A program made the position numbers and the translations under genes. Source: a virus. Taken from it: a stretch of DNA of 64,000 nt. The notes under the pieces are model-generated. The model was not told the origin of the DNA. It did no database searches and saw only the letters and a list, made by a program, of their open reading frames with translations. Shown here piece by piece: positions 959-49,097 of the stretch (its first letter is position 1; each line of letters begins with the position of its first letter). Where the stretch lies: IMG/VR virus record IMGVR_UViG_3300033145_003080, positions 85,038 through 149,037 of that record. One strand, given 5' to 3'.

Positions 959-1831
959 ATGCCATTTCGTTTGCCAAATGAATTTTTAAGCTCACCGGAT
1001 GATAATAAAATACGCCCATACACTGTTGGTACAACAGAGCATGCAGGAACCGTTGCAACAATAGTCCTTTATACAACAGCGCAGGGTTTTTTGTCGGATG
1101 ATGCTCTCAAGACGAATGACTATCTTACTGATTTATCAATGAGCATTTCCGAATTAGAAGCTGGTTCAATTAGTGGAGACGAGCAGGCTCCTCCTTCAAT
1201 ACCAGGCGGCAAGATTGCTTTAATTTCTCTTGATGGCAAGCAGCCGAATAATTATTATGGTGTATTTAATAATTTTTCATTGATAAATGTTCAAGAAGCT
1301 CATGGTGAAATAGTCAAGTTGCATCAAAATTTCTCAAATGGGTGGAATGCATTTTTCTTTGGAGAAAAGCCTGCGATATACAACTTTTCTGGAATGTTCC
1401 TTGATACTCGAGAATATCCATATTACCAGGAATTCATGGTTGCGTATAATAAATATCTTCGTGGCAGAAGATGTATTGAAAACAATATGCAATTAAAAAT
1501 AATGTATGACGGCAAACTCGTAGATGGCTACATGCTCAATATCAGCACCAGTACAACTGGAGATTTGGAACAGAGCAAATCATTCACATTTTCAGTTCTT
1601 GTAAGAGCATCGCGATGGATCAGGATGAATCTTATTCCAGTTTATTCTTCTCATGACAACAGATACATAAGTGTTGATGAATTTAATAGTATGAGAAATG
1701 CTGGCAGGTTGGCTGGCGATTTCTTAAGTGGATATATCGAACATATACAAGTTGACAAGAACGATCCAAGTGGAACTGTAACACCAACGGATATTGTTTC
1801 AGCACCATCGACTAATCTGAAAGATACTTAA
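959..1831 (+). CDS. Hypothetical tail/baseplate-associated protein
   Basis: 290-aa ORF whose stop overlaps the next start (TAATG); beta-rich motifs (FFFGEKPAIYNFSGMFLD, DGYMLNISTS) resemble tube-initiator-like proteins. Confidence 0.45.
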   Translation: MPFRLPNEFLSSPDDNKIRPYTVGTTEHAGTVATIVLYTTAQGFLSDDALKTNDYLTDLSMSISELEAGSISGDEQAPPSIPGGKIALISLDGKQPNNYYGVFNNFSLINVQEAHGEIVKLHQNFSNGWNAFFFGEKPAIYNFSGMFLDTREYPYYQEFMVAYNKYLRGRRCIENNMQLKIMYDGKLVDGYMLNISTSTTGDLEQSKSFTFSVLVRASRWIRMNLIPVYSSHDNRYISVDEFNSMRNAGRLAGDFLSGYIEHIQVDKNDPSGTVTPTDIVSAPSTNLKDT

Positions 1832-4785
1832 TGGCTGAAAAGAAAGGTTTTAGTTATTCATTTAAGATGTATATGGAGGGAATTGCCGTTCCTTTCAAGG
1901 GTGCTACTATTGTCTGTACTCCTAATGGTCAGGAGGCGAATATAAATGTATATTCTAATAAGCAACTTCTTGACATTAAGCCAAAAACCGCCGTACAAAT
2001 ATTCTATCGTGAATGGTCTACTCGAGAGAAAAGGCCTGCATGGAGATTGGCGTTTGATGGATTCTTTTCGTGCTTCTATAAAGTAGATCAAGCAACTGAA
2101 GGGCGTGGATTGGGAATGGTATGTCGTGACTTTCGAATGGATATTCGAAGGGCGCCCGCTGCAATAGCCTGGGAAGCGGCTGATGCTTTAACCACTCGCA
2201 ATTTTTATAATTCGATGGGGATATTTCAGACATTTGTCATAAAAGGAAAAACGCAAAAACAAGGTACTGATATCAGGGTATTTGACAATACAGGACTAGC
2301 ACCTTTGTCCTATACTCTTGGCCTTATTGCCGGCAGCGCAGGATACAGCCGCACATCAAACAAGATGAAAGGGACGAAGAAGAGTACGAACACTATTGCT
2401 GATGAGGGGAGCTTCGATCAACAGATTGGTAAAATACAAAAAGATGAGAAAGCAAATAAGACACAGCAGGATGGTGAAGATGCTTATTCTGCTGAGTTTG
2501 CCAGTGCAACACCATCAGATAATGGGGTGGCAAATTGCGGATTCTATCTGGATGCATTAATTAGGGGTATGTGGCTAGAAGCTGTCGGTGGTACGGCAGT
2601 AGGAACATTCCTTAATAAGCGTATACGGCTTGATAAACGTTTTCTTGTACCGGTAAATAAAGCGGGATATAACTTTTGGAGCAAACAGAGTGGAAGTGTG
2701 CATATTGGTTCTCACCTGATGGGCAATTCACGTTTCTCGAGTCTCGAGGCGGCCATAATGAGATTGGCCGGCGCATTTTCTACTCGAGTGTATTCATGCA
2801 GCACGCCATCATTAATACCAATAGGCAACAAGGCTGATGGAAAACCGTATGATGCAGTTGAGTATGTTATGGATTCAAAGGTAAGGAAGTTTCTCGTAGA
2901 CAGGGCATCTGCCGAATTCGGTGGTAAATATATATTAAATGAATCAATGCTTTTGCCTCCACTCGAGTTTACAGCCCCACCGAATTGTAATCTTCTTTTT
3001 CCACCAATGTATGACAGGGTTGAATGGCAATATGATATTGATGCCGATGTTACTCGAGGGTATTTTGATCAAGTCCACATGCTTTCGTCGCCAGGTGGAA
3101 ACGCCCTTGCATCACCCAGCGTACAGGTTCCGAACGCTTTGTTTAATTTGATGAATAGTGATGGTGATCGGGCAAAAGATATGACAAAATCGAAAGGTAC
3201 CGTTGACGGTACTGATCCGTCTAACAAGAAAGTTGCCAATGCTACAAAAGCTAATGTGACAGAGAATAAAAAGAAAAAACAAAATGCAGCCAGTAAATCA
3301 GTTAAGACAAAAGGGACAGATAGATATGGAAGAATAAAACCGCCACTTACACTTGAGGAAAGGTATAAAGGAATTAATGTCATATTTGGTAGCGTGTCTC
3401 ATGAACTGGCAATGAATGATGCAATCAATGTTGTTAAGGATAGGCAGGCGAATAAGAAGGCCAGGGACAAACTTGATAGTGAGATAGCAAAACTGGAAGA
3501 TGTTAGAGATAAAGCGTTAGGAGCTCTTGAAATATCACCTGAAAACACAGGGTTTGCTGCTGAAAAAGCAGATGCTGTAAGAAATAAAATTAAAGAAAAA
3601 CGTGCTGCCAGAGATAAGCTTAAAGGTCATAGGGGTATAAATAATAAAACTAAAAATGCCCTAAAACATCATGCGCTTTTAAAGTTTCTGAACAGAAAGT
3701 ATGCAGGGCGAGTTGTGACGGTTGATATGGCTTTTAATCCATATATCATGTGTGGTTTCCCCGGGGTAGTAATAGCTGACGACATGGGGTATGGCGAAGA
3801 GTCGATGAAGACTATTCTTGGAATGGTGCAGCAGGTAAAACATACTTTATATATTACACCACAAAGTGCAGAGGCGAATACATCTATTGTTATGAATAAT
3901 GCTCGGTTCGAAGACGAGCCAACTGATATGAACGAACATGGCTCTCCGATGTACATGAAAGCAACTGTTCCGTCAGATGCTGAGATAGACATTGATACAC
4001 TCGAGTACAAAAACAACTACTTTATCCCTGAGCCGAAAGCTCCGGTCAAACGTATTCTTAATTCGGATTATTATGATTTGAATGATGAGAGCCAGCTACA
4101 TAGTGAATATGTATACGCAAAAGATTTACTTAGCTTAACAGCACAGGATATTGCTAATGGAGAACGTAATCAAATTTATATTGACGAAGGGTATGAGCCA
4201 ACACGAATAGCAAAGTTCTATCGTGATGTGTTTGGCCATAAAAAGCAGCATTTTATGATAGGAAGCGCTGTTGACCCGAATAATGAAACAGAACGAATAA
4301 ATTTTATGCATGACACGGTCCATGAAGCCTTACAGTATTTACGTGATTCAAAACCTGAGTTGCTTCAGAATTATGAGGATTGTCTTGATTTTATAAAAAG
4401 AAATGTTTGTTCTGCCGATGCTTTCTATCAGGGAATATTAGGTTTATCTATTAGTGATAAGGTTGCTGATGATGAGGGCAATCAAATATATGAGTATGTG
4501 AACTATCCGGCTTTGGGAGATGAGCTTGGAACTGAGATTCTTTTTAATGACCACATAATTCACAATCGGTATTATGGTGTAACGACCACTGATTGGGATA
4601 GTGGAAATTTGGATGGTTTGAAGCAGAAAAATGGTGGTACGATGTATGAACCAGGTCAATTCAGCAGCATCCGTGAGCACATGCCGGTTACTGCCTTTAT
4701 TCAAGAGCGCAGAGACGCTGTTGAGATATATGTGTCTAAAGTTCTGCAGCGGGTAAGTGGAACACAGTATGCACCGGTTTATTAG
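1831..4785 (+). CDS. Baseplate hub-like protein (gp27/gpD-like fold) with large insertions
   Basis: N-terminal KMYMEGIAVPF...LAFDGFFS...GMVCRD and C-terminal GRVVTVDMAFNPYIMCGFPGVVI...GMVQQVKHTL are typical of hub proteins; tail-module context. Confidence 0.55.
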   Translation: MAEKKGFSYSFKMYMEGIAVPFKGATIVCTPNGQEANINVYSNKQLLDIKPKTAVQIFYREWSTREKRPAWRLAFDGFFSCFYKVDQATEGRGLGMVCRDFRMDIRRAPAAIAWEAADALTTRNFYNSMGIFQTFVIKGKTQKQGTDIRVFDNTGLAPLSYTLGLIAGSAGYSRTSNKMKGTKKSTNTIADEGSFDQQIGKIQKDEKANKTQQDGEDAYSAEFASATPSDNGVANCGFYLDALIRGMWLEAVGGTAVGTFLNKRIRLDKRFLVPVNKAGYNFWSKQSGSVHIGSHLMGNSRFSSLEAAIMRLAGAFSTRVYSCSTPSLIPIGNKADGKPYDAVEYVMDSKVRKFLVDRASAEFGGKYILNESMLLPPLEFTAPPNCNLLFPPMYDRVEWQYDIDADVTRGYFDQVHMLSSPGGNALASPSVQVPNALFNLMNSDGDRAKDMTKSKGTVDGTDPSNKKVANATKANVTENKKKKQNAASKSVKTKGTDRYGRIKPPLTLEERYKGINVIFGSVSHELAMNDAINVVKDRQANKKARDKLDSEIAKLEDVRDKALGALEISPENTGFAAEKADAVRNKIKEKRAARDKLKGHRGINNKTKNALKHHALLKFLNRKYAGRVVTVDMAFNPYIMCGFPGVVIADDMGYGEESMKTILGMVQQVKHTLYITPQSAEANTSIVMNNARFEDEPTDMNEHGSPMYMKATVPSDAEIDIDTLEYKNNYFIPEPKAPVKRILNSDYYDLNDESQLHSEYVYAKDLLSLTAQDIANGERNQIYIDEGYEPTRIAKFYRDVFGHKKQHFMIGSAVDPNNETERINFMHDTVHEALQYLRDSKPELLQNYEDCLDFIKRNVCSADAFYQGILGLSISDKVADDEGNQIYEYVNYPALGDELGTEILFNDHIIHNRYYGVTTTDWDSGNLDGLKQKNGGTMYEPGQFSSIREHMPVTAFIQERRDAVEIYVSKVLQRVSGTQYAPVY

Positions 4786-4793
4786 GAAATAAC

Positions 4794-5486
4794 ATGCCAA
4801 CCGACCAAGAGAACATACTGCAATGGCAGAGGACGAAAGATCCGCGGTTGTTTGCTGATCTTATTATTCGTTATCAGCCTGTGGTTAATAAGGTTGTTGG
4901 GCAATACCGCACTGTCGGCGTTTCCCCTGCCACGTTGCGTGCAGAGGCGACTACCCAACTCATTAAATCCTTCAAGTCTTATGATCCGAAGCATGGTACC
5001 CAGCCGACTACGCACGTATGGAATAATTTGAAAAAGGTACAGCGTGTAGCATCTGAATCTCTTATGTCAGGCCATATCCCTGAGAATAGAGCATTAAAGC
5101 GATCTACTTTTACCATTGTCAAAGATAATCTCGAGGATCGCCTCGGTCGGGAGCCGAGTACTTCTGAAATTGCTGATGAGATAGGATGGAATAAAAAAGA
5201 AGTTGCTCGTATGGAGCATGAACTTGGAGGGGAAGCAACTGCATCGAAAGCTTCTTTTGATTTTTATGGCAATGCGATAACTAAAGAACATCCTGATAAA
5301 GCGCTTGCTGATTATATGTATTATGAATTGGCTGGTCCGGACAAAGTTATTTTTGAACACACTTTTGGCTATGGTGGAAAGCGGATATTGAATAACAAAG
5401 AAATTGCGGGAAAGCTTCATAAAAATGAAATGTGGGTACATCGAGCGAAGAAGCGATTGTCGCAGAAAATTCAATCATATAGATAA
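4794..5486 (+). CDS. Phage sigma-70-family RNA polymerase sigma factor (group 3-like, FliA/SigB-type architecture)
   Basis: Region 2 (LIIRYQPVVNKVV...LIKSFKSYDPKHG...THVWNNLK), region 3 (LEDRLGREPSTSEIADEIGW) and region 4 HTH (NNKEIAGKLHKNEMWVHRAKKR); AGGA RBS. Confidence 0.88.
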   Translation: MPTDQENILQWQRTKDPRLFADLIIRYQPVVNKVVGQYRTVGVSPATLRAEATTQLIKSFKSYDPKHGTQPTTHVWNNLKKVQRVASESLMSGHIPENRALKRSTFTIVKDNLEDRLGREPSTSEIADEIGWNKKEVARMEHELGGEATASKASFDFYGNAITKEHPDKALADYMYYELAGPDKVIFEHTFGYGGKRILNNKEIAGKLHKNEMWVHRAKKRLSQKIQSYR

Positions 5487-5495
5487 GGAGAAAAT

Positions 5496-6038
5496 ATGTT
5501 AGCGCCTGAAGTTTTAAAATCATTCAGTAACCATGTAGACATGGATAAGGTTGCGTACGGTGTGCAGAGTTATTATGCACATAAGGGTGGTGAGGTTGGG
5601 TCTTATGCGTCTCAAACCTATCCAGGGAAAGGGTTTAAGAAGAATGTTGAGATGGGAGTTGACAGGTATGGTAGGAGTGTTTATGACAGGTGGTCACCAT
5701 ACAGCAAAGGGTCTTCTGATTATAATACTGCTGTAGAAAATTTAAAAGGGTCAAAGTATGGCAGGCGCTCTTTGCGGCGTGCTGGGGTTATTAAAAGAGA
5801 ACCACTTTCAGGCGGATATGCAAAACCTGCCATTGCTGGTGCGGCTGTTGGTGGCACGGTTGGAGCGGTCGCTGGAGCCCACGGTGCTCTCCGTGCTGCA
5901 CATCGTATATATAGAAAAACAGGCGTTCTTCCGATGCGAGCCGCAGGAAGAGTCGCTAGAAGGGTTGGTGTTGGCGGTGCCGTGCTTGGTGCTGGCATTG
6001 GACTGGCATCGAGATTTATAAGTAACAGAACTGCATAA
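5496..6038 (+). CDS. Small basic protein with glycine-zipper hydrophobic segments and a KxA-type leader
   Basis: AAGGAG RBS; AIAGAAVGGTVGAVAG and VGVGGAVLGAGIGLA segments; N-terminus SFSNHVDMDKVA. Confidence 0.7.
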   Translation: MLAPEVLKSFSNHVDMDKVAYGVQSYYAHKGGEVGSYASQTYPGKGFKKNVEMGVDRYGRSVYDRWSPYSKGSSDYNTAVENLKGSKYGRRSLRRAGVIKREPLSGGYAKPAIAGAAVGGTVGAVAGAHGALRAAHRIYRKTGVLPMRAAGRVARRVGVGGAVLGAGIGLASRFISNRTA

Positions 6039-6048
6039 AGGATATTAA

Positions 6049-6117
6049 ATGCCTCCTCCAAAACAGGTACATCGGGCAAAGAAACGGTTGTCATAGAAGA
6101 TTCAAACTTATCGATAG
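6049..6117 (+). repeat. Chimeric duplicated gene fragments: start of the 8234 gene (MPPPKQ) fused to a diverged copy of the sigma-factor 3' end
   Basis: 6049-6066 ATGCCTCCTCCAAAACAG vs 8234-8251 ATGCCTCCCCCAAAACAA; 6067-6117 encodes VHRAKKRLS*KIQTYR* vs sigma 5436-5486 VHRAKKRLSQKIQSYR*. Confidence 0.93.
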
Positions 6118-6124
6118 GGTTGAT

Positions 6125-8221
6125 ATGCATATTGCAGATATATACAACACGGCGTTTGTAGATGAGCTTATGAAAGTGGCGAAATTTAAGGGAACGTTGT
6201 TGCCACATCAAGTTGAAGCGCTTGAGAAGTTCAACAAAGAAGACGCTATTCTTCTTTTGCATCATTTGGGATCTGGTAAAACAATAACATCAATTGCCGG
6301 CACTGAAGATGGAGGTTCTGTTGATGTGGTTGTCCCAGCTTCTCTCAGAGAAAATTATAAAAAGGAATTGGCTAAATTTACAACACCCGGCGGTACAAAA
6401 AGAAATGTTATTTCTTATAATAAATATGTAAAAGAAGGACCGACGCCGGGAGCTAAAGCTGCTGTGTTTGATGAGCCTCAAAGGATTGGTAGGCATGGCA
6501 CATTAACATCCCAAACTGTAGTTGGTTCTGCGCTATTGTACCCAAAAAGGATGCTTTTAACAGGAACTCCAGCGACAAATTATCCTTATGAACTTGCTCC
6601 TATTATAAGGACATTAACGCCTGAAGCAAAAAACATACCACTTGATCCAATTGCGTTTAAAAGTAAATTTCTCGGAGAAAAAAAGATTCGATTGTCACCA
6701 CTTAAATATTTAATGGGGATGAAGCCTGGTGTTGAATTTTATCCGCGTAATGTTGAGGAGATCAAAGGCGCCATTAAGGGGAAGGTTCATTATTACAAAC
6801 CTGATGAGGAGGGTTACCCAGAGCGTATTGATGAGGTTAAAAGTGTAGAAGCGTCCCCAGAACAGGTAAAGTATTATAAATATGTTACCAAGCGAGCCAA
6901 TCCGGTTGTTGCTTTAAAAGTGCGCATGAACATGCCTTTGTCTAAAAAGGAATCAAAGGAGTTAAACGCATTCATGACTGCCGCGAGACAAGTCTCAAAT
7001 ACAACAAAGCCATATGGTGGTAAAGAGCAATTGTCTCCAAAGTTAAAGACTGTTATTGACGATTTTGAGGAAAGTGTTAATAAAAATAAAAAACACAAAG
7101 GTATTATATATTCTAATTATCTTGGGGCAGGTGTCGATATTATTGCTGAAGAAATGGAAAAGCGTGGCATTCCTTACACACGTTTTACTGGAAAATTAAA
7201 TGATAAACAAAAAAAAGAATCTGTTGATAAATACAACAAAGGCGAAGTAAAGGCAATACTTGTAAGTGGGGCAGGGTCTGAAGGGCTTGATTTAAAAAAT
7301 ACTCGTTCTATACAAATAATTGAGCCACACTGGAATCAATCGAGAATAGAACAGGTTGTCGGAAGGGGTATTAGGTACAAGTCGCATGAGGGACTTCCTA
7401 AGTCTGAAAGAAAAGTTGATGTAATAAAATACCAAACAACGATTCCAAAAAAAATTATGCAAAAGATTTTTAAGAAAAAATCTGATACATCGGCAGATCA
7501 ATATCTTGAAACTTTAAGTAAAGACAAACAGAGGCTTTTAGACAAATTCCTTGATATTTTTAAAGAAGAAGGAGTGCAGAAATCGGCTTTCGACATGATG
7601 TGTGAAAAAAAATACCAAGCAGTTTTTAAAGATGAGCTTGAAAAAATAGCTGCTGTTAATCCTGAAAATTATTTATATCATTATTTTTCTCCAAAAAGCA
7701 TTAATAAAATGGTTAGTTCCGGCGGAATAGTGGCAACCCCAAGAAAAGCTTTTGGTGGTAAGAAAGTAACTGGTATTAGTACTACTAGAGACCCAAAGGC
7801 CACATTTTTTAAATCTCTTCCCACAAAAGGTGATGTGGGTTTCTTAAGGTTTAAATTATCAAAAGATATAATAAATAAAAATTATAAAATAAAACCTTTT
7901 GACGACATTGGGCTAAGAAGCATCGGAAAGTCTGAAGCTGAAGAATTAATTATTTTAAAAAAAATAAAAGGCAAGCAATCAGTTGTACCTTTTTCAAAAA
8001 TAAAATCAATTGAAGTTGCCGATCCTAGCGGGTTAAAAAATTATTTAAGAAGTGGCTCTATTGATGTAAATAAAATCCCGCAGATTGATTTTTCAAAAAT
8101 GGAAATATCAGGTGAAAATATGGAAAATATTATGGGGGCGCTTAAGCCGAAAGGGTCCTCAAAACAAAGAATTAAAAATATACGAAAAATATTTAACGTT
8201 ATGAAAAAATTAAAAAAATAA
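6125..8221 (+). CDS. SNF2/SF2 helicase-like ATPase with a C-terminal ADP-ribosyltransferase-like domain
   Basis: Q motif LLPHQ, Walker A HHLGSGKT, DEPQ, LLTGTP, SGAGSEGLDLK, QVVGRGIR. After a second KxA motif: YLYHYF...GISTTRD...EAEE, an ART-like triad (less certain than the helicase call). Confidence 0.85.
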   Translation: MHIADIYNTAFVDELMKVAKFKGTLLPHQVEALEKFNKEDAILLLHHLGSGKTITSIAGTEDGGSVDVVVPASLRENYKKELAKFTTPGGTKRNVISYNKYVKEGPTPGAKAAVFDEPQRIGRHGTLTSQTVVGSALLYPKRMLLTGTPATNYPYELAPIIRTLTPEAKNIPLDPIAFKSKFLGEKKIRLSPLKYLMGMKPGVEFYPRNVEEIKGAIKGKVHYYKPDEEGYPERIDEVKSVEASPEQVKYYKYVTKRANPVVALKVRMNMPLSKKESKELNAFMTAARQVSNTTKPYGGKEQLSPKLKTVIDDFEESVNKNKKHKGIIYSNYLGAGVDIIAEEMEKRGIPYTRFTGKLNDKQKKESVDKYNKGEVKAILVSGAGSEGLDLKNTRSIQIIEPHWNQSRIEQVVGRGIRYKSHEGLPKSERKVDVIKYQTTIPKKIMQKIFKKKSDTSADQYLETLSKDKQRLLDKFLDIFKEEGVQKSAFDMMCEKKYQAVFKDELEKIAAVNPENYLYHYFSPKSINKMVSSGGIVATPRKAFGGKKVTGISTTRDPKATFFKSLPTKGDVGFLRFKLSKDIINKNYKIKPFDDIGLRSIGKSEAEELIILKKIKGKQSVVPFSKIKSIEVADPSGLKNYLRSGSIDVNKIPQIDFSKMEISGENMENIMGALKPKGSSKQRIKNIRKIFNVMKKLKK

Positions 8222-8233
8222 TAGGAAAAACCA

Positions 8234-10300
8234 ATGCCTCCCCCAAAACAAGCATGTGAAACTATACTTAACACGCAAATGGCTGTGGTTAAGATTATTA
8301 AGCGTGTGCGTGAGATTTCTCAGAAACTTCGCACGCTACTCGAGAATAAATCTAAATTAAAATACGGCATTATTAATCTGCTGGATGTGATAGGGGCAGA
8401 GACGCTCACCGCTATTACTTCAGTAGCAGCATCGGCAGCAAAAGCTATACTTGGTGCAATGTCGGGTATGGCCAGCACGCTGCTCGAGTCAATTCTATCC
8501 AGCCTTCTTAAGATATTGCTTGCAAATCCAACTGCTATATTTTCTCTTGTTGCTATCCCCCATAGCCAGGCAATTAAAGCCGTTACTGAAGAGAGGCTTT
8601 TGCTTCAACGCGCACGAAGGAATATGCGAACTATTTTATATATTATTCTTAAATGGACACAAGGGGTAAGCGGTGCCCGGTATTATAAACAGTTAAAGGC
8701 CGCTCTTCCTTATATCCAGAAAGCAATAGCATTATCAGTTGATATCATCCATGATTTGGAAGGAGAGCCGACAAAAGATAGTGAGGTAAGGAATGCCAAA
8801 TTTAATGAGTCAAAATACATAGTAATGCAATGGAATCTCGAAATGGCAATTGATATAACAAAGCCTGATTCAATTGTTGATACTCGATTTCAAATTACAA
8901 AGAAAGTTGAACAAAACCGGAATAGACGGTATAGGCAACTTGCCGAAAAGATAGAGGATAATTATAAAAAAAGACGAAAAGAGCTTGCTCGGTGGTATAG
9001 TAAACAGATATCACAAATTGACCATGAGAGCGAAAATTTATCAACCGCATTAAAGATGGAGCGGATACGACATGAATATGCATTTAAAAGAAAGATAATA
9101 GAAACTGAGCGCAAAGAAAAGCTCCATGCGGCTGAATTACAAGCGGCTTCAGAGTCTCTTGTTGACAAAAGTGCATATTTAAATGCTATTGGTGGGATTG
9201 CCGCAGAGTTTTCGAATGATATGATAAATCTCGCTGCTAATCTGGCTGAGTTTGTTGATAATGTGAAAGATGCGTATACAACATACCGGCGTAGTCAAAA
9301 TTTGTGCAATGCTATTTATAGAATCAGAAATCTTATTACCAATCTGATTAATGAGATTGTTGATATATTACGCAGAACTTCGAATGCATCAGCATCTGCG
9401 GCGATCAAATCTCTCGAGACAGCGCAGTCGATAATGGAGGTGGTGGAAGAGGATTTTATAGATTCAACAGGAAGGTATGAAAATACCTCTGAGAAAATAA
9501 GTTCTTCTGAACTGGCCGGCGCAGTTATTTCAGGCTATGGTTTATTATCTTCAGCAGATGCGCTTCTTGACAGTACTATAACCAAAAGCCTTATCGATTT
9601 AGTAAATTCTGATGATGTACTTCAGACTGCAAACGAAGATTTTGAAGCATTTCATCAGGCTTTAACTCAGATTCCGGACTGGGATGGTCAACTAAATGTG
9701 TGGGCTGTAACCCCCACTGACAGTGCATTCAGTCCATATATACAGATGATAGCTGATTCAATATCTGTTTTGGCAAAAGTTCCTGTACTCGCCATGTCAA
9801 ACGATGAAGATGCCAGAATTGAGGTTACCAGAATATTAAAAGATATTAATAATACTTTTAGGGCTCTGTTTAATCATAATGCAATAGTAAGTAACACGCT
9901 CAATTCTTATGTGCCATATATGTCGTCTGAAGCTGGTAATTTGACGAGAATTTTGGCAAATGCAGGATTACTCGAGGAATTCGCAACTGGAATGAGTATT
10001 GCAGCAATGACTGCAGATATTGTAACATCTATAATAAAAGGTGGTCTCGATGATACTATGCCGACATATGCCAATTGCCGTTCAGCTTATCCTGAGTTGT
10101 ATGATAATGCTGACGCTGCAGAGGCTGCTGCGCTTGGTAACGCGAGCATTACTCCGGCGGAAGTAGATTTAAATTATATATCGAAAGTTGAAGATAAAGA
10201 AGTGCAGCGGCTTGGTGGTGATTCTTTTGCGAGGAACTGGGATATGAACAGTTCTCTAACAGATGATAGTTTTGCTCGACCGGGCTCTGATGAGGGATAG
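8234..10300 (+). CDS. Hypothetical helical/coiled-coil protein (virion region)
   Basis: 688-aa ORF with AGGA RBS, hydrophobic N-terminal helices and a central coiled coil; no family recognised. Confidence 0.6.
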   Translation: MPPPKQACETILNTQMAVVKIIKRVREISQKLRTLLENKSKLKYGIINLLDVIGAETLTAITSVAASAAKAILGAMSGMASTLLESILSSLLKILLANPTAIFSLVAIPHSQAIKAVTEERLLLQRARRNMRTILYIILKWTQGVSGARYYKQLKAALPYIQKAIALSVDIIHDLEGEPTKDSEVRNAKFNESKYIVMQWNLEMAIDITKPDSIVDTRFQITKKVEQNRNRRYRQLAEKIEDNYKKRRKELARWYSKQISQIDHESENLSTALKMERIRHEYAFKRKIIETERKEKLHAAELQAASESLVDKSAYLNAIGGIAAEFSNDMINLAANLAEFVDNVKDAYTTYRRSQNLCNAIYRIRNLITNLINEIVDILRRTSNASASAAIKSLETAQSIMEVVEEDFIDSTGRYENTSEKISSSELAGAVISGYGLLSSADALLDSTITKSLIDLVNSDDVLQTANEDFEAFHQALTQIPDWDGQLNVWAVTPTDSAFSPYIQMIADSISVLAKVPVLAMSNDEDARIEVTRILKDINNTFRALFNHNAIVSNTLNSYVPYMSSEAGNLTRILANAGLLEEFATGMSIAAMTADIVTSIIKGGLDDTMPTYANCRSAYPELYDNADAAEAAALGNASITPAEVDLNYISKVEDKEVQRLGGDSFARNWDMNSSLTDDSFARPGSDEG

Positions 10301-10348: not shown

Positions 10349-10590
10349 GTTACTGGCCACAAAACATATTTGCGGTTTGAAAACGGCATTTCAATGCAAA
10401 CAGTGACTAGCACAAGAGAAGTTCAAAATGAACAATATCTACGACGATAAACAGCTACAAGAACGGAATCAGAGTGCTCCCACAGCTCTGCCCACTTCGG
10501 GGATTGCCGATCCTGATGTGTCTTTTGATACTAAGCTGAATTGTCATGTGCGAGTGGGTAATACTGGTTATAGTACCAGGCCGAATGTCG
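10349..10590 (+). ncRNA. Putative omegaRNA scaffold of the IsrB element
   Basis: GTTACTG (10349) can pair with CAGTGAC (10401), which is followed by TAGC; internal TGCTCCCACAGCTC and CATGTGCGAGTGGG resemble conserved omegaRNA segments; lies immediately 5' of the PLMP-like motif. Ends are approximate. Confidence 0.6.
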
Positions 10591-11615
10591 GTAAACATAC
10601 TATATTTGTTTTAAATGTTAATGGTAAGCCATTAACCCCAACAACACCAGCAAAAGCAAGAAAGTTATTAAAAGGAGGTAAAGCAAAAAAATACTGGAGT
10701 AAGTTTAACACATTTGGTATTCAACTTGTTGATAAAACAAGAGAAGAAATACAGAAAACTGTACTTGGATATGATCCAGGTAGTAAATTTGAAGGCGTTT
10801 CTGTGGTTTGTGGTGATGAGAATAATTTGTCTGTAAAATTAAATTTACCTAATAAAACAAATATTGTTAATAAATTAAAAGAGCGCAGACAAATCAGAAG
10901 GAATAGAAGATATAGAAAATGTCGTAGAAGAAAAGCAAGGTTTTCAAATAGAAAAAGGAATGGTTTTATCGCCCCATCTCAATTAGTTATAGTGAATTCA
11001 AGATTAAAAATTTTAAAAGAATTTTGCAATATTTACCCAATATGCAATGTAGCTATGGAAAATATAAAGTTTAACCATCTAAAATATAGATGGGGTAAGA
11101 ATTTTTCAACAATGGAAATTGGCAAACAAAAAATAAGAATTTTTTTCAAAAATAGAAATATTGAAATATTTGAATATGATGGTTTTAAAACATCTAAAAT
11201 AAGAAAAAAATATGGATATAAAAAGACATTTATAAAAAGTGCAGATCATTTTACATCACATTGCTCTGATTCATTATCCCTTGCTATTGAGATAAGCTGT
11301 AAAAAAAGAATACATGAAGGATTGTTTCTTATAGTTGATGACACTTATCGTTGTGTAAAAAGGAAACTTCATGACAGACAACCATCAATAGGTGGGATAA
11401 GAGAAAAATATTCTCATGGAAATGTAAATGGTGTTAAAAAAAGTATAATTATTGGCGCAAAAAACGGCAATATAGGACAATTGTGTGGCGAAACGAATGG
11501 TCGTTTTAGATATTATGATTTGGATGGTAAACGAAAAATAACAAAAACAATATCTTGGATAAATAACCAATTTAAAACAAATACAATAAAAGAAGAACAA
11601 TTTTACGCGGCATAA
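10428..11615 (+). CDS. isrB: IsrB-type OMEGA nickase (IscB family lacking HNH)
   Basis: IFVLNVNGKPLTPTTPAKARKLL (PLMP domain), RuvC-I LGYDPGSK, Arg-rich bridge helix RRQIRRNRRYRKCRRRKARF, RuvC-II VAMEN, RuvC-III SHCSDSL; no HNH/CxxC insertion. Confidence 0.85.
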   Translation: MNNIYDDKQLQERNQSAPTALPTSGIADPDVSFDTKLNCHVRVGNTGYSTRPNVGKHTIFVLNVNGKPLTPTTPAKARKLLKGGKAKKYWSKFNTFGIQLVDKTREEIQKTVLGYDPGSKFEGVSVVCGDENNLSVKLNLPNKTNIVNKLKERRQIRRNRRYRKCRRRKARFSNRKRNGFIAPSQLVIVNSRLKILKEFCNIYPICNVAMENIKFNHLKYRWGKNFSTMEIGKQKIRIFFKNRNIEIFEYDGFKTSKIRKKYGYKKTFIKSADHFTSHCSDSLSLAIEISCKKRIHEGLFLIVDDTYRCVKRKLHDRQPSIGGIREKYSHGNVNGVKKSIIIGAKNGNIGQLCGETNGRFRYYDLDGKRKITKTISWINNQFKTNTIKEEQFYAA

Positions 11616-11640: not shown

Positions 11641-12084
11641 ATGGATATTGATTTTTTCACAGACTTAAGAAGCCAGTTTAAAATTAGCATTGGTGATAAT
11701 CCTCAAGGTGTTGAGGGAAACCGTGCGCTGTTAAACCGGTTTGAGATAACATTTTTGACAAAAACAAAGATGTTTCTATTTGATGGTAAATTAATTACAG
11801 ATGATTATGCTGGTGATGCTGAAAAATATATTAATAAACCTCAAGTGCTAAACGACCCACAGAGCATAGCAGGAGGAGTTTCGGTATCTATTGACCAGAC
11901 AGTGGCGTCTATGAAAAGTGATGAGCCGCCAGGAGTTCCAAATACTGAAAAAATTGAAAGTGCAGAGCTTATTGATATAGAAATTATTGATGACATTGTT
12001 TTTGCAAAAATACAGGTACACCCTGTAGAAGTTGAACTTTATCAGGATCTTATGTTTAATTTGCCAATCATCAAAAAGGATTAG
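11641..12084 (+). CDS. Baseplate wedge protein, gp25-like
   Basis: 147 aa; GVEGNRALLNRFEITFLT...EKIESAELIDIEII...AKIQVHPV pattern; lies upstream of the baseplate J-like gene. Confidence 0.6.
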   Translation: MDIDFFTDLRSQFKISIGDNPQGVEGNRALLNRFEITFLTKTKMFLFDGKLITDDYAGDAEKYINKPQVLNDPQSIAGGVSVSIDQTVASMKSDEPPGVPNTEKIESAELIDIEIIDDIVFAKIQVHPVEVELYQDLMFNLPIIKKD

Positions 12085-12121
12085 AAATAATCATTTAATA
12101 TTTCTATATAAAATAAAAAAA

Positions 12122-13300
12122 ATGATACAGAAAAAGTCGTATAAATTTAGAATTTATCCAAATGACACTCAAAAGATTTTGTTGAATAAAACGTTTGGTT
12201 GCGTGAGATACATGTGGAACCAAATGGTGGAATCATTTAAAAAAAAAGAAAACCATAAATCGGCAACTATTTTACGCAATGAAATTGAATGGTTAAAAGA
12301 AGTGTCTGCAGCATCAATTCAACAAAAAGAAATTGATTTTAGAGAGTTTAAAAAACAATTCTTTTCTAAAAATAGAAAAAGAAATATTGGGAAACCTTCA
12401 TTTAAAAAGAAGTATCAAAAGCAGTCGTATAGACTTCCCAATCAGAAATTTGTTTTAGATCAAGGAGAATCAAAAATTAGGTTGGAGAAAATAGGTTGGA
12501 TAAAAATAATATTAGATAGAAAAATACCTAAACATATATATTATTTATCGGTTACCATTTTGAAAGATAAGGTTGGTGATTATTATGCGTCTATTCTTGT
12601 TAATGAAGAAATTAAAGAACTTCCTAAAACAAATAGGGTGGTTGGTGTTGATTTAGGAATAAAAGACCTTATTACCACCTCTGATGGATTGCAGGTAAAA
12701 ATGTTTGATGAAAGCGAGAGCCAAGCTAGGATTAAACGTTTATCTAAACATTTATCAAGGAAAGTGGTGGGGTCTTTGAGGTTTAATAAACTTAAAAATA
12801 AAATAGCAAAAACTCACAGAAAGATTGGTAGAAAGCGCAATTGGTTACATCACAATATTTCTTTATTTTTGATTAAAAATTATGATGAAATAATTTTAGA
12901 AGATTTGAATGTATCTGGGATGATGAAAAACCGCCAATTAGCAGGATTTATTCATAGACAAGGATGGTCATCTTTAGTAAACCAGATCAATTATAAATCA
13001 AGATGGTATGGTAGAAAGAGCAAAAAACTTGATCGATGGTTTCCTTCTTCTAAAACATGTTGTGAATGTGGCACTGTTAAAAAAGGTTTAAAATTGTCAG
13101 AGAGAGTCTACGAGTGTGAATGTGGTAACAAAATTAACAGAGACTTTAATGCATCTCTAAATATTAAATCCGCAGGAGTTACTACGGATCAACGGTCGTT
13201 GATGGAATGTGAGACTTTTAATCCTAAAAAGCAATCTTTAGAGTTAAAAGCAATTCCAAGTGAAATGATTAATCTAATAGAAAAGAATAAAATTCTATAA
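12122..13300 (+). CDS. tnpB: TnpB RNA-guided nuclease (IS200/IS605 OrfB), no TnpA
   Basis: KSYKFRIYPN...KTFGCVRYMWN HTH; RuvC VGVDLGIK, ILEDLNVSGM, NRDFNASLNI; Zn ribbon CCECG...CECG. Start re-called at ATG 12122, in frame with the 12032 ORF. Confidence 0.93.
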   Translation: MIQKKSYKFRIYPNDTQKILLNKTFGCVRYMWNQMVESFKKKENHKSATILRNEIEWLKEVSAASIQQKEIDFREFKKQFFSKNRKRNIGKPSFKKKYQKQSYRLPNQKFVLDQGESKIRLEKIGWIKIILDRKIPKHIYYLSVTILKDKVGDYYASILVNEEIKELPKTNRVVGVDLGIKDLITTSDGLQVKMFDESESQARIKRLSKHLSRKVVGSLRFNKLKNKIAKTHRKIGRKRNWLHHNISLFLIKNYDEIILEDLNVSGMMKNRQLAGFIHRQGWSSLVNQINYKSRWYGRKSKKLDRWFPSSKTCCECGTVKKGLKLSERVYECECGNKINRDFNASLNIKSAGVTTDQRSLMECETFNPKKQSLELKAIPSEMINLIEKNKIL

Positions 13301-47784: not shown

Positions 47785-47948
47785 GGTCGCTAGGTTTGAG
47801 CCACCCTGACCCTCACCTAGAGACCCGCCTTGCCCGATCTTTATGATCGGGCTTGTGCGTGATAGCTAAAAAAAACGTTCATGAATTTTTTATGCAAGGA
47901 AACTACCGGCTTTGTGCCGGTGGATGAATTGTGCCTTTTTTTAACCGT

Positions 47949-47977
47949 TTGACATTTCAATACAATTATACTATATT
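47949..47977 (+). promoter_or_regulatory. Sigma70 consensus promoter for tnpB (probably a leaderless transcript)
   Basis: TTGACA-17 bp-TATATT, 7 nt upstream of GTG 47985. Confidence 0.75.
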
Positions 47978-47984
47978 AAATACC

Positions 47985-49097
47985 GTGAAAACAATAAGAA
48001 CCATAAAACTTAAATTTAATGGAAAGCATAAGGCCAATAATATTCTTCCAAATTGGATTAATGCTTGCAACTGGCTCTCTGAGATAGTTTTTGATTCCAA
48101 AGAAATTAATTCTAATCGACTTTCTCAAGCTTATTACAAAATTGTTCGTGAAAAATTTAAACTTCCATCACAATTGACTTGTACGCTTTTTCGTACAGTA
48201 TCAGCTACATATAAAACTCAAAAAGCTCAAAAAATGTGGAACCTTTGCATATACAAAAGGAAGTCTATCCCAATTGTTTGGAAAAGAGATTTTGCTCGAA
48301 CCAAAAAAGGTGTCACTCTTTGGGGTGATATTATTATTTTTGACGACTCAAGAGCAATTCCAGATCGCTGGAAAGACTCTAAAATATCCCTTAAAGATGG
48401 ACAGTGGTTTTTTAATCTTTCTTATGAAATTGATATTCCGGAACCAAAAATAAAAGGAACAATAATTGGAGTAGACCAGGGAATAAAAAGACTTTTTGTA
48501 GCTTCTGAATCTAATGGTGATAAACTGTTTTACAAATCTAACCACCTTAATCATAAACTTGCTAATATCAGAAATCATAGATCTAAAATACAAGCGGTTG
48601 GAACCCGTTCTTCAAAAAGACTTCTCAAAAGAATGTCTAAACACGAGGCTTCCGTAACCGAGCATGCAGTGCATGTTGCTTCTAAAAGACTTGTATTTTG
48701 GGCTAATTTTATAGGAGCAAGGAAAATTGTTTTTGAGGATTTGTCTAATATACGAAAATCTTCTTTGAGTAAAGGAAAGCAACTTCGCAGTAAAGTTAAT
48801 TGCTGGCCTTATGGCATGTTTACATATTTTGTAACATACAAAGCTGCTGCTTTTGGTATTGCTACTGAAAAAGTTTCTCCAAAGAATACTTCTCGTATGT
48901 GTCATAAGTGTGGACATATTGACAAATCCAATCGAAATGGTTTTACCTTTAAATGTCTTTCTTGCGGTTATACCGCAGATTCAGATTGGAACGCCAGTAA
49001 GAATATTGCTGGCCGATCAATGTCTATCGGGTTAAACTCAATAGACACAGGGAGTTATAAATCCCCTGAAAAACAGACTATTTTTAGCCATGTTTAA
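47985..49097 (+). CDS. tnpB: TnpB RNA-guided nuclease
   Basis: RTIKLK N-terminus; RuvC IGVDQGIK, IVFEDLSNIR, DSDWNASKNI; Zn ribbon CHKCG...CLSCG. Start re-called at GTG 47985. Confidence 0.92.
   Translation: MKTIRTIKLKFNGKHKANNILPNWINACNWLSEIVFDSKEINSNRLSQAYYKIVREKFKLPSQLTCTLFRTVSATYKTQKAQKMWNLCIYKRKSIPIVWKRDFARTKKGVTLWGDIIIFDDSRAIPDRWKDSKISLKDGQWFFNLSYEIDIPEPKIKGTIIGVDQGIKRLFVASESNGDKLFYKSNHLNHKLANIRNHRSKIQAVGTRSSKRLLKRMSKHEASVTEHAVHVASKRLVFWANFIGARKIVFEDLSNIRKSSLSKGKQLRSKVNCWPYGMFTYFVTYKAAAFGIATEKVSPKNTSRMCHKCGHIDKSNRNGFTFKCLSCGYTADSDWNASKNIAGRSMSIGLNSIDTGSYKSPEKQTIFSHV

Follow-up and report, generated by a model that had tools for sequence, protein, structure and literature searches.

The window analysed here is a stretch of 64,000 nucleotides from a virus record (IMGVR_UViG_3300033145_003080, positions 85,038 to 149,037). 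It contains, in order and all on the + strand, a sigma-70-like factor gene (4794..5486), a first cargo gene (cargo1, 5496..6038), a short scar, an SNF2 ORF (6125..8221) and a conserved core gene that we call gene X (8234..10300). Sigma and gene X are the left and right borders of an accessory-gene slot. The sigma assignment relies on phrog_351 (RNA polymerase sigma factor) and on a marginal match to PF04539 (Sigma70_r3, 26.4 bits for a cut-off of 25.3), sigma-70 regions 2 and 4 being undetected by Pfam in this gene. Sigma is present in all 45+ related loci. Matches of its protein in cultured phages are distant (24 to 28% identity), and the 5.5 kb of DNA around the slot has none in these phages. 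Gene X encodes 688 amino acids, with 30 to 75% amino acid identity among relatives; it belongs to no Pfam or PHROG family, and Atlas was uninformative (scores of about 0.8). Upstream of sigma lies another core gene, p984 (1831..4785, + strand), found in all relatives at 34 to 79% amino acid identity. It is without Pfam or PHROG match, and an Atlas lead points to a GpP-like baseplate hub (score 0.95). A second variable slot, of which p984 forms the left border, is empty here, since only 8 nt separate this gene from sigma. The sigma/gene X slot is surrounded by baseplate-like genes, not head genes.

The cargo1 protein (180 amino acids) starts with a variant of the leader peptide described below and ends with a Gly/Ala-rich tail. 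Its residues 1 to 106 are homologous to a 106-amino-acid gene in two relatives, L011 and L012 (44% identity, E 2e-28), where this gene sits upstream of sigma, and its 5' end, including the ribosome-binding site (RBS), matches the beginnings of the cassettes that follow p984 in L001, L006 and L013. For cargo1 homologues, a search of a 5.8-billion-protein database returned the query alone, and an alignment-based scan of viral contigs gave none. The Gly-rich tail has a weak, low-complexity likeness to the small slot protein of L009, L042 and L001 (E 0.002 to 0.01, obtained with a tiny database and composition correction off), which was left unused.

The next ORF begins with an SNF2-type helicase module carrying an N-terminal leader (6125..7594, + strand; phrog_62), in which the SNF2 ATPase (PF00176, 30 bits) and helicase C (PF00271, 56 bits) domains both score above their cut-offs; it is 87% identical in amino acids to the SNF2 protein of L056 and 82% to that of L001. 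Judging from the alignments, the ORF is a fusion, made at an internal leader, of this helicase to an ART-like module. The second module (7595..8221, + strand), which continues the same frame, comprises an internal leader (7604-7657) and an ART-superfamily-like domain. DNA similarity with L001 stops at 7581, 7598-7653 aligns with the beginning of the L009 slot ORF, the leader HMM has a match at residue 527 of the SNF2 frame, and L056 and L001 carry unrelated extensions past the same point. The earlier note had described this cargo as SNF2/ART; Pfam confirms the first half of the label, and the second is plausible on fold and motifs. Foldseek places ART-fold proteins alone on top, with Tpt1, DarT and the cholera/pertussis toxin A fold (E about 1e-2, TM 0.3 to 0.4, for an AF2 model of pLDDT 63), and L-Y-H, I-S-T-T and S-E-x-E-E are conserved in 6 sequences, the module having only 6 homologues and no Pfam or PDB sequence match. 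GC content differs by module: 48% for cargo1, 37% for SNF2 and 30% for the ART-like module, versus 40 to 43% for core genes. Most cargo proteins find nothing in Pfam or PHROGs.

The sigma/gene X boundary was proposed to be a variable slot, and this proved correct among the 27 relatives in which both boundaries are visible. In 13-14 of them the slot is empty, sigma abutting gene X (in L002 by a TAATG stop/start overlap), and the others hold 159 to 4467 nt of varied cargo. The comparison shows insertion, deletion or replacement of whole genes at the same site between close relatives. Relatives with a single cargo, which had been predicted, exist in two forms: L056 to L059, from four sequencing runs, read sigma, TAG, 7 nt, SNF2, gene X, and L009 and L042 have one small protein between sigma and gene X. 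Living relatives therefore display empty, single-cargo and stacked states of the slot. Neither expected parent has an exact counterpart among the relatives: the layout sigma-SNF2-gene X is that of L056 to L059, but with a sigma end other than the predicted one, and sigma-cargo1-gene X is absent, the sole cargo1 homologues being upstream of sigma.

Between cargo1 and the SNF2 ORF sits a 69-base leftover made of two recognizable fragments. Bases 6067-6117 (+ strand) align without gaps to the native sigma 3' end (5436-5486, + strand, the last 16 codons and TAA), with 40/51 identities; this sigma' relic has 16 codons, one of them an in-frame TAG, and a terminal TAG. A match of this quality anywhere in the window has a binomial expectation of about 1.7e-7. 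Bases 6049-6066 match the start of gene X (8234-8251) at 16/18 positions and are in frame with the sigma copy. Flanking sequences to the left and right of both blocks lack similarity by sequence alignment. The relic, the gene X start and their in-frame fusion had been described before from the letters of the window, and our alignments reproduce them base for base.

The gene X piece reaches upstream into the RBS region, so that the relic as a whole (6035..6066, + strand) contains the RBS region and the first 17-18 coding nt. Over 6035-6065 its identity with the gene X 5' regions of L006 and L042 is about 90% (30-32 nt), and these match it better than does the window's own gene X; for L006, 6048-6065 is identical at 18/18 positions. 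The gene X head stops at 6065/6066 and the sigma' tail begins at 6066/6067, base 6066 (G) being assignable to either side. With a microhomology of 0-2 nt and no flanking similarity, the joint has the near-absence of homology that characterizes non-homologous (illegitimate) recombination.

Two sigma ends could also have arisen by tandem duplication within the same genome, followed by drift of the non-coding copy. In keeping with this, S>T and the TAG are the only peptide differences between the relic and the window's own sigma tail, and at the DNA level this tail is the best match to the relic (40/51), followed by that of L013 (38/51). However, of the 11 differences, 8 are synonymous (from sigma to relic: CGA>CGG, GCG>GCA, AAG>AAA, CGA>CGG, TCG>TCA, AAA>AAG, AGA>CGA, and the stop TAA>TAG), the remaining ones being TCA>ACT (S>T, 2 nt) and CAG>TAG. 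At least 8 synonymous differences out of 11 are expected with P=0.0003 under unconstrained drift. If sigma remained constrained and the relic alone drifted after duplication, they occur in 0.46% of simulations (P=0.0046). This excess leads us to reject the same-genome duplicate and to conclude that the two sigma ends diverged while functional, each in a different phage. The attached gene X head, nearer to the 5' regions of other lineages than to the resident one, further argues against a local duplication, which we consider extremely improbable. The codon pattern thus supports the proposal that selection shaped the second sigma end in another, related phage. The two sides of the joint would come from different lineages, as suggested by the synonymous-biased divergence of sigma' together with the resemblance of the gene X head to L006 and L042. 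Since the relic peptide is nearest to the window's own sigma, the donor would be a near relative, the divergence signal spanning only 51 nt. A relative whose sigma ends in KIQTYR had also been predicted; there is none among the relatives.

We consider it likely that 6035-6117 is a real recombination scar, left when two versions of a single accessory-gene slot were stacked. One gene X allele would have contributed its RBS and first 17-18 nt, and a sigma allele of another, related phage its last 51-52 nt, so that a left version [sigma - cargo1 - gene X] was stacked with a right version [sigma' - SNF2... - gene X]. The product would have retained both cargoes and a single intact copy each of sigma and gene X. 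The join itself would be non-homologous, made either in a single step or within a bigger duplication later trimmed by deletion.

Might the joint instead have been made by an assembler, or by a chimeric read, from a cargo1 strain and an SNF2 strain that co-occurred? The record comes from a metagenome assembly, is 80% complete and is flagged with inverted terminal repeats, and exact look-ups (cargo1 protein, 30-nt junction pattern) found no second, independent assembly of the exact joint. Yet the joint shares at most 2 nt, which leaves no repeat or k-mer for a graph assembler to cross. The terminal repeat is just 114-217 nt long and far from the slot, with no other large repeats near, and the two fragments sit precisely at slot borders, with an in-frame fusion between them. 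Moreover, the same type of scar recurs in independent assemblies of another lineage, and an artefact is in our view very unlikely.

Two relatives, L033 and L056, bear independent scars of the same kind, which indicates that the process recurs. In L033, an 18-codon copy of the sigma tail follows a 72-amino-acid insert, again with mostly synonymous differences; it begins with ATG and ends in a stop that overlaps the ATG of the next gene. L056 contains a sigma pseudogene with an internal deletion and, after it, the small protein normally found 3' of sigma, an arrangement exactly reproduced in L057 and L059. Its duplicate sigma is a decaying full-length copy of which head and tail pieces are left.

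This last case bears on a variant of the stacking scenario, in which larger pieces, such as a complete second sigma or a long part of gene X as in L056, were stacked and then reduced by deletion, or in which a mini-circle [sigma tail - cargo1 - gene X head] was excised from one phage and inserted in another through sigma-tail homology, in a PeSL-like manner. Several observations are compatible with it: the decaying duplicate of L056, the leader-only stubs that attest to frequent deletions in cassette arrays, and the mini-circles formed between nearby repeats in T4-type phages (PMC2839356). In addition, the starts of the relic tails in the window and in L033 are no more than two codons apart, a hint of a preferred edge. 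Against this, the final structure is the same as that of a single crossover, and neither circle junctions nor intermediates were observed; we regard this course of events as possible but rather unlikely. The crossover had been placed near CAG|GTAC. The joint seen there need not be the primary crossover: because the stacked array of L056 retains a whole duplicate sigma decaying by deletion, this joint may mark the edge of a deletion that came later.

Another question is why the relic persisted. The last bases of the sigma' relic probably serve as RBS for SNF2, the terminal TAG of the relic being separated from the ATG by 7 nt exactly as in L056, and the tail may have survived for this reason. 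A stronger version would have the whole scar kept by selection as an expression device, an upstream ORF and RBS coupling SNF2 translation to the upstream start. The scar does contain an RBS and an ATG, and its in-frame fusion yields a 15-codon mini-ORF (6049..6096, + strand: gene X start codon, sigma' codons, TAG). The L033 tail copy, with its ATG and overlapping stop, is organized in a comparable way, and in both L056 and the relic the bases around the sigma stop are the only SD-like element before SNF2. The phage also has a CUA tRNA, and readthrough of TAG would extend the mini-ORF to a TGA at 6121-6123, 1 nt short of the SNF2 ATG. On the other hand, the in-frame TAG ends the mini-ORF 28 nt short of SNF2, 19/140 long ORFs use TAG as their normal stop, and the element is conserved in no relative and forms no RNA structure. 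We find selection for such a device unlikely. Global recoding of TAG, which would silence the CAG>TAG change, was also considered and discarded: p984 and gene X are among the long ORFs that end in TAG, and long ORFs are intact under table 11.

Taken as an event, the scar is a clean and unsurprising example of phages stacking accessory genes. In the Hendrix-type model, random illegitimate joins in tailed-phage genomes are filtered by selection to gene borders. The present joint has the features of such mosaics, namely near-zero homology, position at a gene border, modules of different ancestry and leftover fragments. It differs in that both fragments are identifiable, in frame and with a codon-level signature of prior selection, and in that two alleles of one slot were stacked instead of one being exchanged for the other. 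The individual events behind such mosaics can seldom be read; in this case, 69 bases preserve both parental borders, and the codon record shows that the second once belonged to a working gene in another phage. The slot is therefore a concrete model for the build-up of accessory, probably anti-host, genes.

The earlier note saw in the scar how this phage accumulates cargo; stacking is one route of cargo gain and not the sole one. L001 and L012 have the same gene order, a small protein then SNF2, without a scar, and other histories are therefore possible. Most cargo exchange in these relatives appears to occur at shared leader-coding sequences. The leader HMM has 75 matches, every one on the gene strand and mostly 2-8 residues after the Met; the consensus is about 16 residues long, with invariant F, E and K. 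The leader is also found internally and at C-termini, as a module junction. Cassette borders show no promoter-like or terminator-like site on the + strand, and their folds are no better than those of shuffled sequences.

Hyperplastic regions of T4-type phages undergo PeSL-mediated modular shuffling, with mini-circles (PMC2839356, PMC4122927). As in these regions, variable non-essential genes lie here between core genes, repeated short boundaries mediate insertion, deletion and replacement, and close relatives differ by whole cassettes. Unlike them, the slot has no promoter and stem-loop boundaries; its repeated boundary is the leader-peptide coding sequence, and the genes are tightly packed with stop/start overlaps.

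The slot would be part of a wider array of cassettes marked by the leader, which probably addresses proteins to the virion. In relatives, leader-tagged genes adjoin a head-maturation-protease gene away from the slot (in G001, domain phrog_18299, 3.6e-8). The window's own record is without such a module, which is consistent with its 80% completeness. A literature search for the motif gave irrelevant matches only. Tentatively, and with somewhat less than even confidence, we propose that the leader is a virion-loading or processing tag of an undescribed family of large phages encoding a multisubunit RNA polymerase of their own. On this view, the arrays to the left and right of sigma would amount to an arsenal of injected effectors (SNF2 helicase, ART-like enzyme, LigD-type end-processing enzyme and ligase, HExxH protease, many small Gly-zipper proteins), and recombination inside the leader-coding sequence would exchange, fuse and split them. 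If so, one peptide-coding segment would be both protein address and recombination site. If virion-delivered, the proteins of the tagged arrays would be a large, almost wholly uncharacterized pool of candidate injected effectors from a family of uncultured phages.

In T4, a capsid targeting sequence (CTS) marks the internal proteins IPI-III and Alt (PMC3012670). The leader resembles it as a short conserved N-terminal peptide on unrelated, fast-evolving proteins, whose cargo includes an ART-like domain (compare Alt), and some tagged genes lie beside the head-maturation-protease gene in relatives. The two sequences are unrelated, however, which makes this an analogy only; the leader is also internal and C-terminal, and the slot lies among baseplate-like genes. 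Searches run without a positive control did not find the T4 gp21 and gp23 families in the phage, nor PF03420 (gp21-type prohead protease) in G000-G003. By description, the arrangement of variable genes beside tail/baseplate genes, with an N-terminal address peptide, would also recall PVC-type extracellular contractile injection systems, whose payloads carry N-terminal packaging signals, except that the leader-bearing genes belong to a phage and not to a tailocin-like particle.

The spacer between cargo1 (ORF 5496-6038) and the SNF2 ORF (6125-8221) contains a relic (6035-6117) in which a 5' fragment of gene X (8234-10300), the right border of the slot, is joined to a diverged 3' end of the sigma-70-like gene (sigma, 4794-5486), its left border. 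As the earlier note had described, 6067-6117 aligns without gaps to the last 16 sigma codons and stop (5436-5486), with 40 of 51 positions identical; the chance expectation of such a match in a window-sized sequence is about 1.7e-7. Eight of the 11 differences are synonymous (TAA>TAG included), the others forming one two-base S>T codon and one CAG>TAG. Directly upstream and in frame, 6049-6066 copies gene X codons 1-6, agreeing with 8234-8251 at 16 of 18 positions, and alignment of the pieces revealed no similarity to the left or right of the two blocks. The gene X fragment also takes in the RBS region ahead of the start codon: 6035-6065 shares about 90% identity with the 5' region of gene X in two related loci, L006 (18/18 over 6048-6065) and L042, and is nearer to these than to the resident gene X. 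Base 6066 is assignable to either parent, so that microhomology at the joint is at most 2 nt. A gene for a CUA-anticodon tRNA is present in the phage (genome C1:57824-57897, minus strand), and TAG readthrough (6094-6096, 6115-6123) would carry the relic mini-ORF to a TGA that lies 1 nt ahead of the SNF2 start. Still, 19 of 140 long ORFs use TAG as their ordinary stop.

The scar had been interpreted as two alleles of a variable slot, sigma-cargo1-gene X and sigma'-SNF2-gene X, stacked by an illegitimate crossover, the second sigma end having evolved under selection in another phage. In simulations, at least eight synonymous differences out of 11 were obtained with P=0.0003 under unconstrained change, and with P=0.0046 if the copy had arisen by duplication within the same genome, sigma being constrained and the relic drifting. 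The signal of selection in another phage is clear, although it rests on 51 nt. We consider the interpretation largely right as to the origin in two alleles and the variable slot; the exact crossover point and both parents are unproven.

DNA and sigma protein searches found no close cultured relative of the window's virus (149 kb record, estimated 80% complete), and the slot was compared with six IMG/VR contigs, 40 metagenome contigs and four Logan contigs having the same sigma gene (57-89% identity). The order p984 (core gene, 1831-4785) - sigma - gene X is kept in all relatives carrying this sigma gene. Among 27 distinct loci with both borders visible, 13-14 have sigma within 25 nt of gene X (in L002, stop and start overlap as TAATG), and the occupied ones contain varied inserts of 159-4467 nt: a small protein with a Gly tail (L009, L042), the same protein plus SNF2 (L001, L012), SNF2 alone (L056-L059), or LigD-type phosphoesterase-like and ATP-dependent ligase-like genes, read from motifs (L003:10926-12470; L004:10681-11388, 11806-12960). 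The predicted single-cargo relatives are represented by L056-L059, from four sequencing runs, where sigma ends in TAG and is followed by a 7-nt spacer, the SNF2 start and then gene X; this TAG, 7 nt, ATG geometry matches that of the relic. Two other predictions found no match. None of about 40 sigma tails ends like the relic, the best DNA match being the window's own tail (40/51), followed by L013 (38/51), and no sigma-cargo1-gene X relative was found. Homologues of cargo1 (44% over residues 1-106) occur only in L011 and L012, immediately 5' of sigma, further searches of a protein database and viral contigs yielding none elsewhere.

As to a possible assembly artefact, no second assembly of the joint was found in the collections searched. 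Arguing against one, the joint offers an assembler no repeat to cross, the two fragments are in frame and coincide exactly with the slot borders, and the record's terminal inverted repeat is only 114-217 nt long and distant. The same kind of scar is also reproduced elsewhere. A scan of all loci for displaced border fragments uncovered two more. In L033, sigma is followed by a 72-aa gene and then by a duplicated sigma tail of 18 codons (L033:1881-1937), in which seven differences are synonymous and one is S>Y; this copy begins with ATG and whose stop overlaps the ATG of the next gene; its 5' edge and that of the window relic are within two codons of each other. The p984/sigma slot of L056 contains an internally deleted, frameshifted sigma pseudogene and two leader-only stubs (pseudogene and stubs at L056:3550-3780 and 4353-4520). 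In the pseudogene, 29 head codons run out of frame into about 55 tail codons, and after it come the small protein normally 3' of sigma and the stubs. This pseudogene is identical in assemblies from other runs (L057, L059). With two further scars, one exact in independent assemblies, duplication of border-gene fragments during slot-allele stacking is genuine and has recurred in this phage family. The duplicates decay by deletion, so that the present window joint may be a deletion edge instead of the original crossover.

One leader peptide opens many slot ORFs, including the majority of the cargo ORFs to either side of sigma. Its consensus spans about 16 residues, with F, E and K invariant. Across the loci (L001-L056 and the window), a leader HMM found 75 copies, every one on the gene strand and none opposite, mostly 2-8 residues after a Met. 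Three complete relatives have 8-14 copies in each genome, without exception on the strand of the structural genes; two lie directly upstream of a head-maturation-protease-domain protein in the terminase block, and others adjoin a fused beta/beta' RNA polymerase gene. The sigma/gene X slot itself sits among baseplate-like genes. The T4 capsid targeting sequence, carried by diverse internal proteins (PMC3012670), offers an analogy: the leader could be a tag by which virion proteins are addressed or processed, a reading to which we give somewhat less than an even chance. The T4 gp21 and gp23 families were not detected, in a search run without a positive control. A short [E/D]-K-T-A-S motif resembling the leader end was seen by eye in two proteins downstream of the protease-domain gene (L060:1338-2864; L065:6653-8209) and might reflect a common processing site.

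The scar agrees with the classical model of phage mosaicism, in which selection retains non-homologous joins at gene borders. The slot is also like the T4-type hyperplastic regions shuffled at PeSL cassettes, possible circle intermediates included (PMC2839356), but promoters or terminators, sought at the cassette borders, are lacking here, and the repeated border is leader-coding sequence. The scar is a clear-cut case of a familiar process, in a novel version of a cassette system.

In the three cargo modules (window 5496-8221), GC content is 48% (cargo1), 37% (SNF2 core) and 30% (ART-like module), a sharp departure from the 40-43% of the flanking core genes. Cargo1 has a leader variant, and its 5' end and RBS match relatives' cassette starts after p984. 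The 698-aa SNF2 ORF carries one leader at its N-terminus (6137-6190) and a second at residue ~505 (7604-7657); DNA similarity to the L001 SNF2 ends at 7581, and 7598-7653 corresponds to the beginning of the L009 slot gene. L056 and L001 have a leader-like motif after the SNF2 core, with unrelated extensions beyond it. The ORF is therefore an in-frame fusion of SNF2 with a second module. This second module, for which there are only six homologues, shows the conserved motifs L-Y-H, I-S-T-T and S-E-x-E-E, and its predicted model (pLDDT 63) retrieves ART-fold proteins only (Tpt1, DarT, toxin A subunits), with weak scores, which makes the earlier ART label plausible, yet unproven. Elsewhere, homologues of this SNF2 carry fused ligase or LigD_N domains (proteins P0015, P0073, P0089); with the LigD- and ligase-like slot genes, end-processing and ligation enzymes thus recur as SNF2 partners.

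A second variable slot lies between p984 and sigma; it has no insert in the window and reaches 4.4 kb in L004. Its commonest occupant in close relatives is a leader-bearing HExxH protein of 254-256 aa without Pfam family, possibly a metalloprotease (L001:8564-9325; L012:6703-7464; L013:604-1365; L056:4521-5291). Downstream, an RRXRR/HNH-type gene (window 10428-11615, Pfam E 1.5e-41) and a transposase-like gene (12032-13300, phrog_506, E 7e-101) split the gene X - 147-aa - 1002-aa order, unbroken in L056, and look like two more mobile insertions in the window's phage. Another transposase-like gene is found at 47931-49097.
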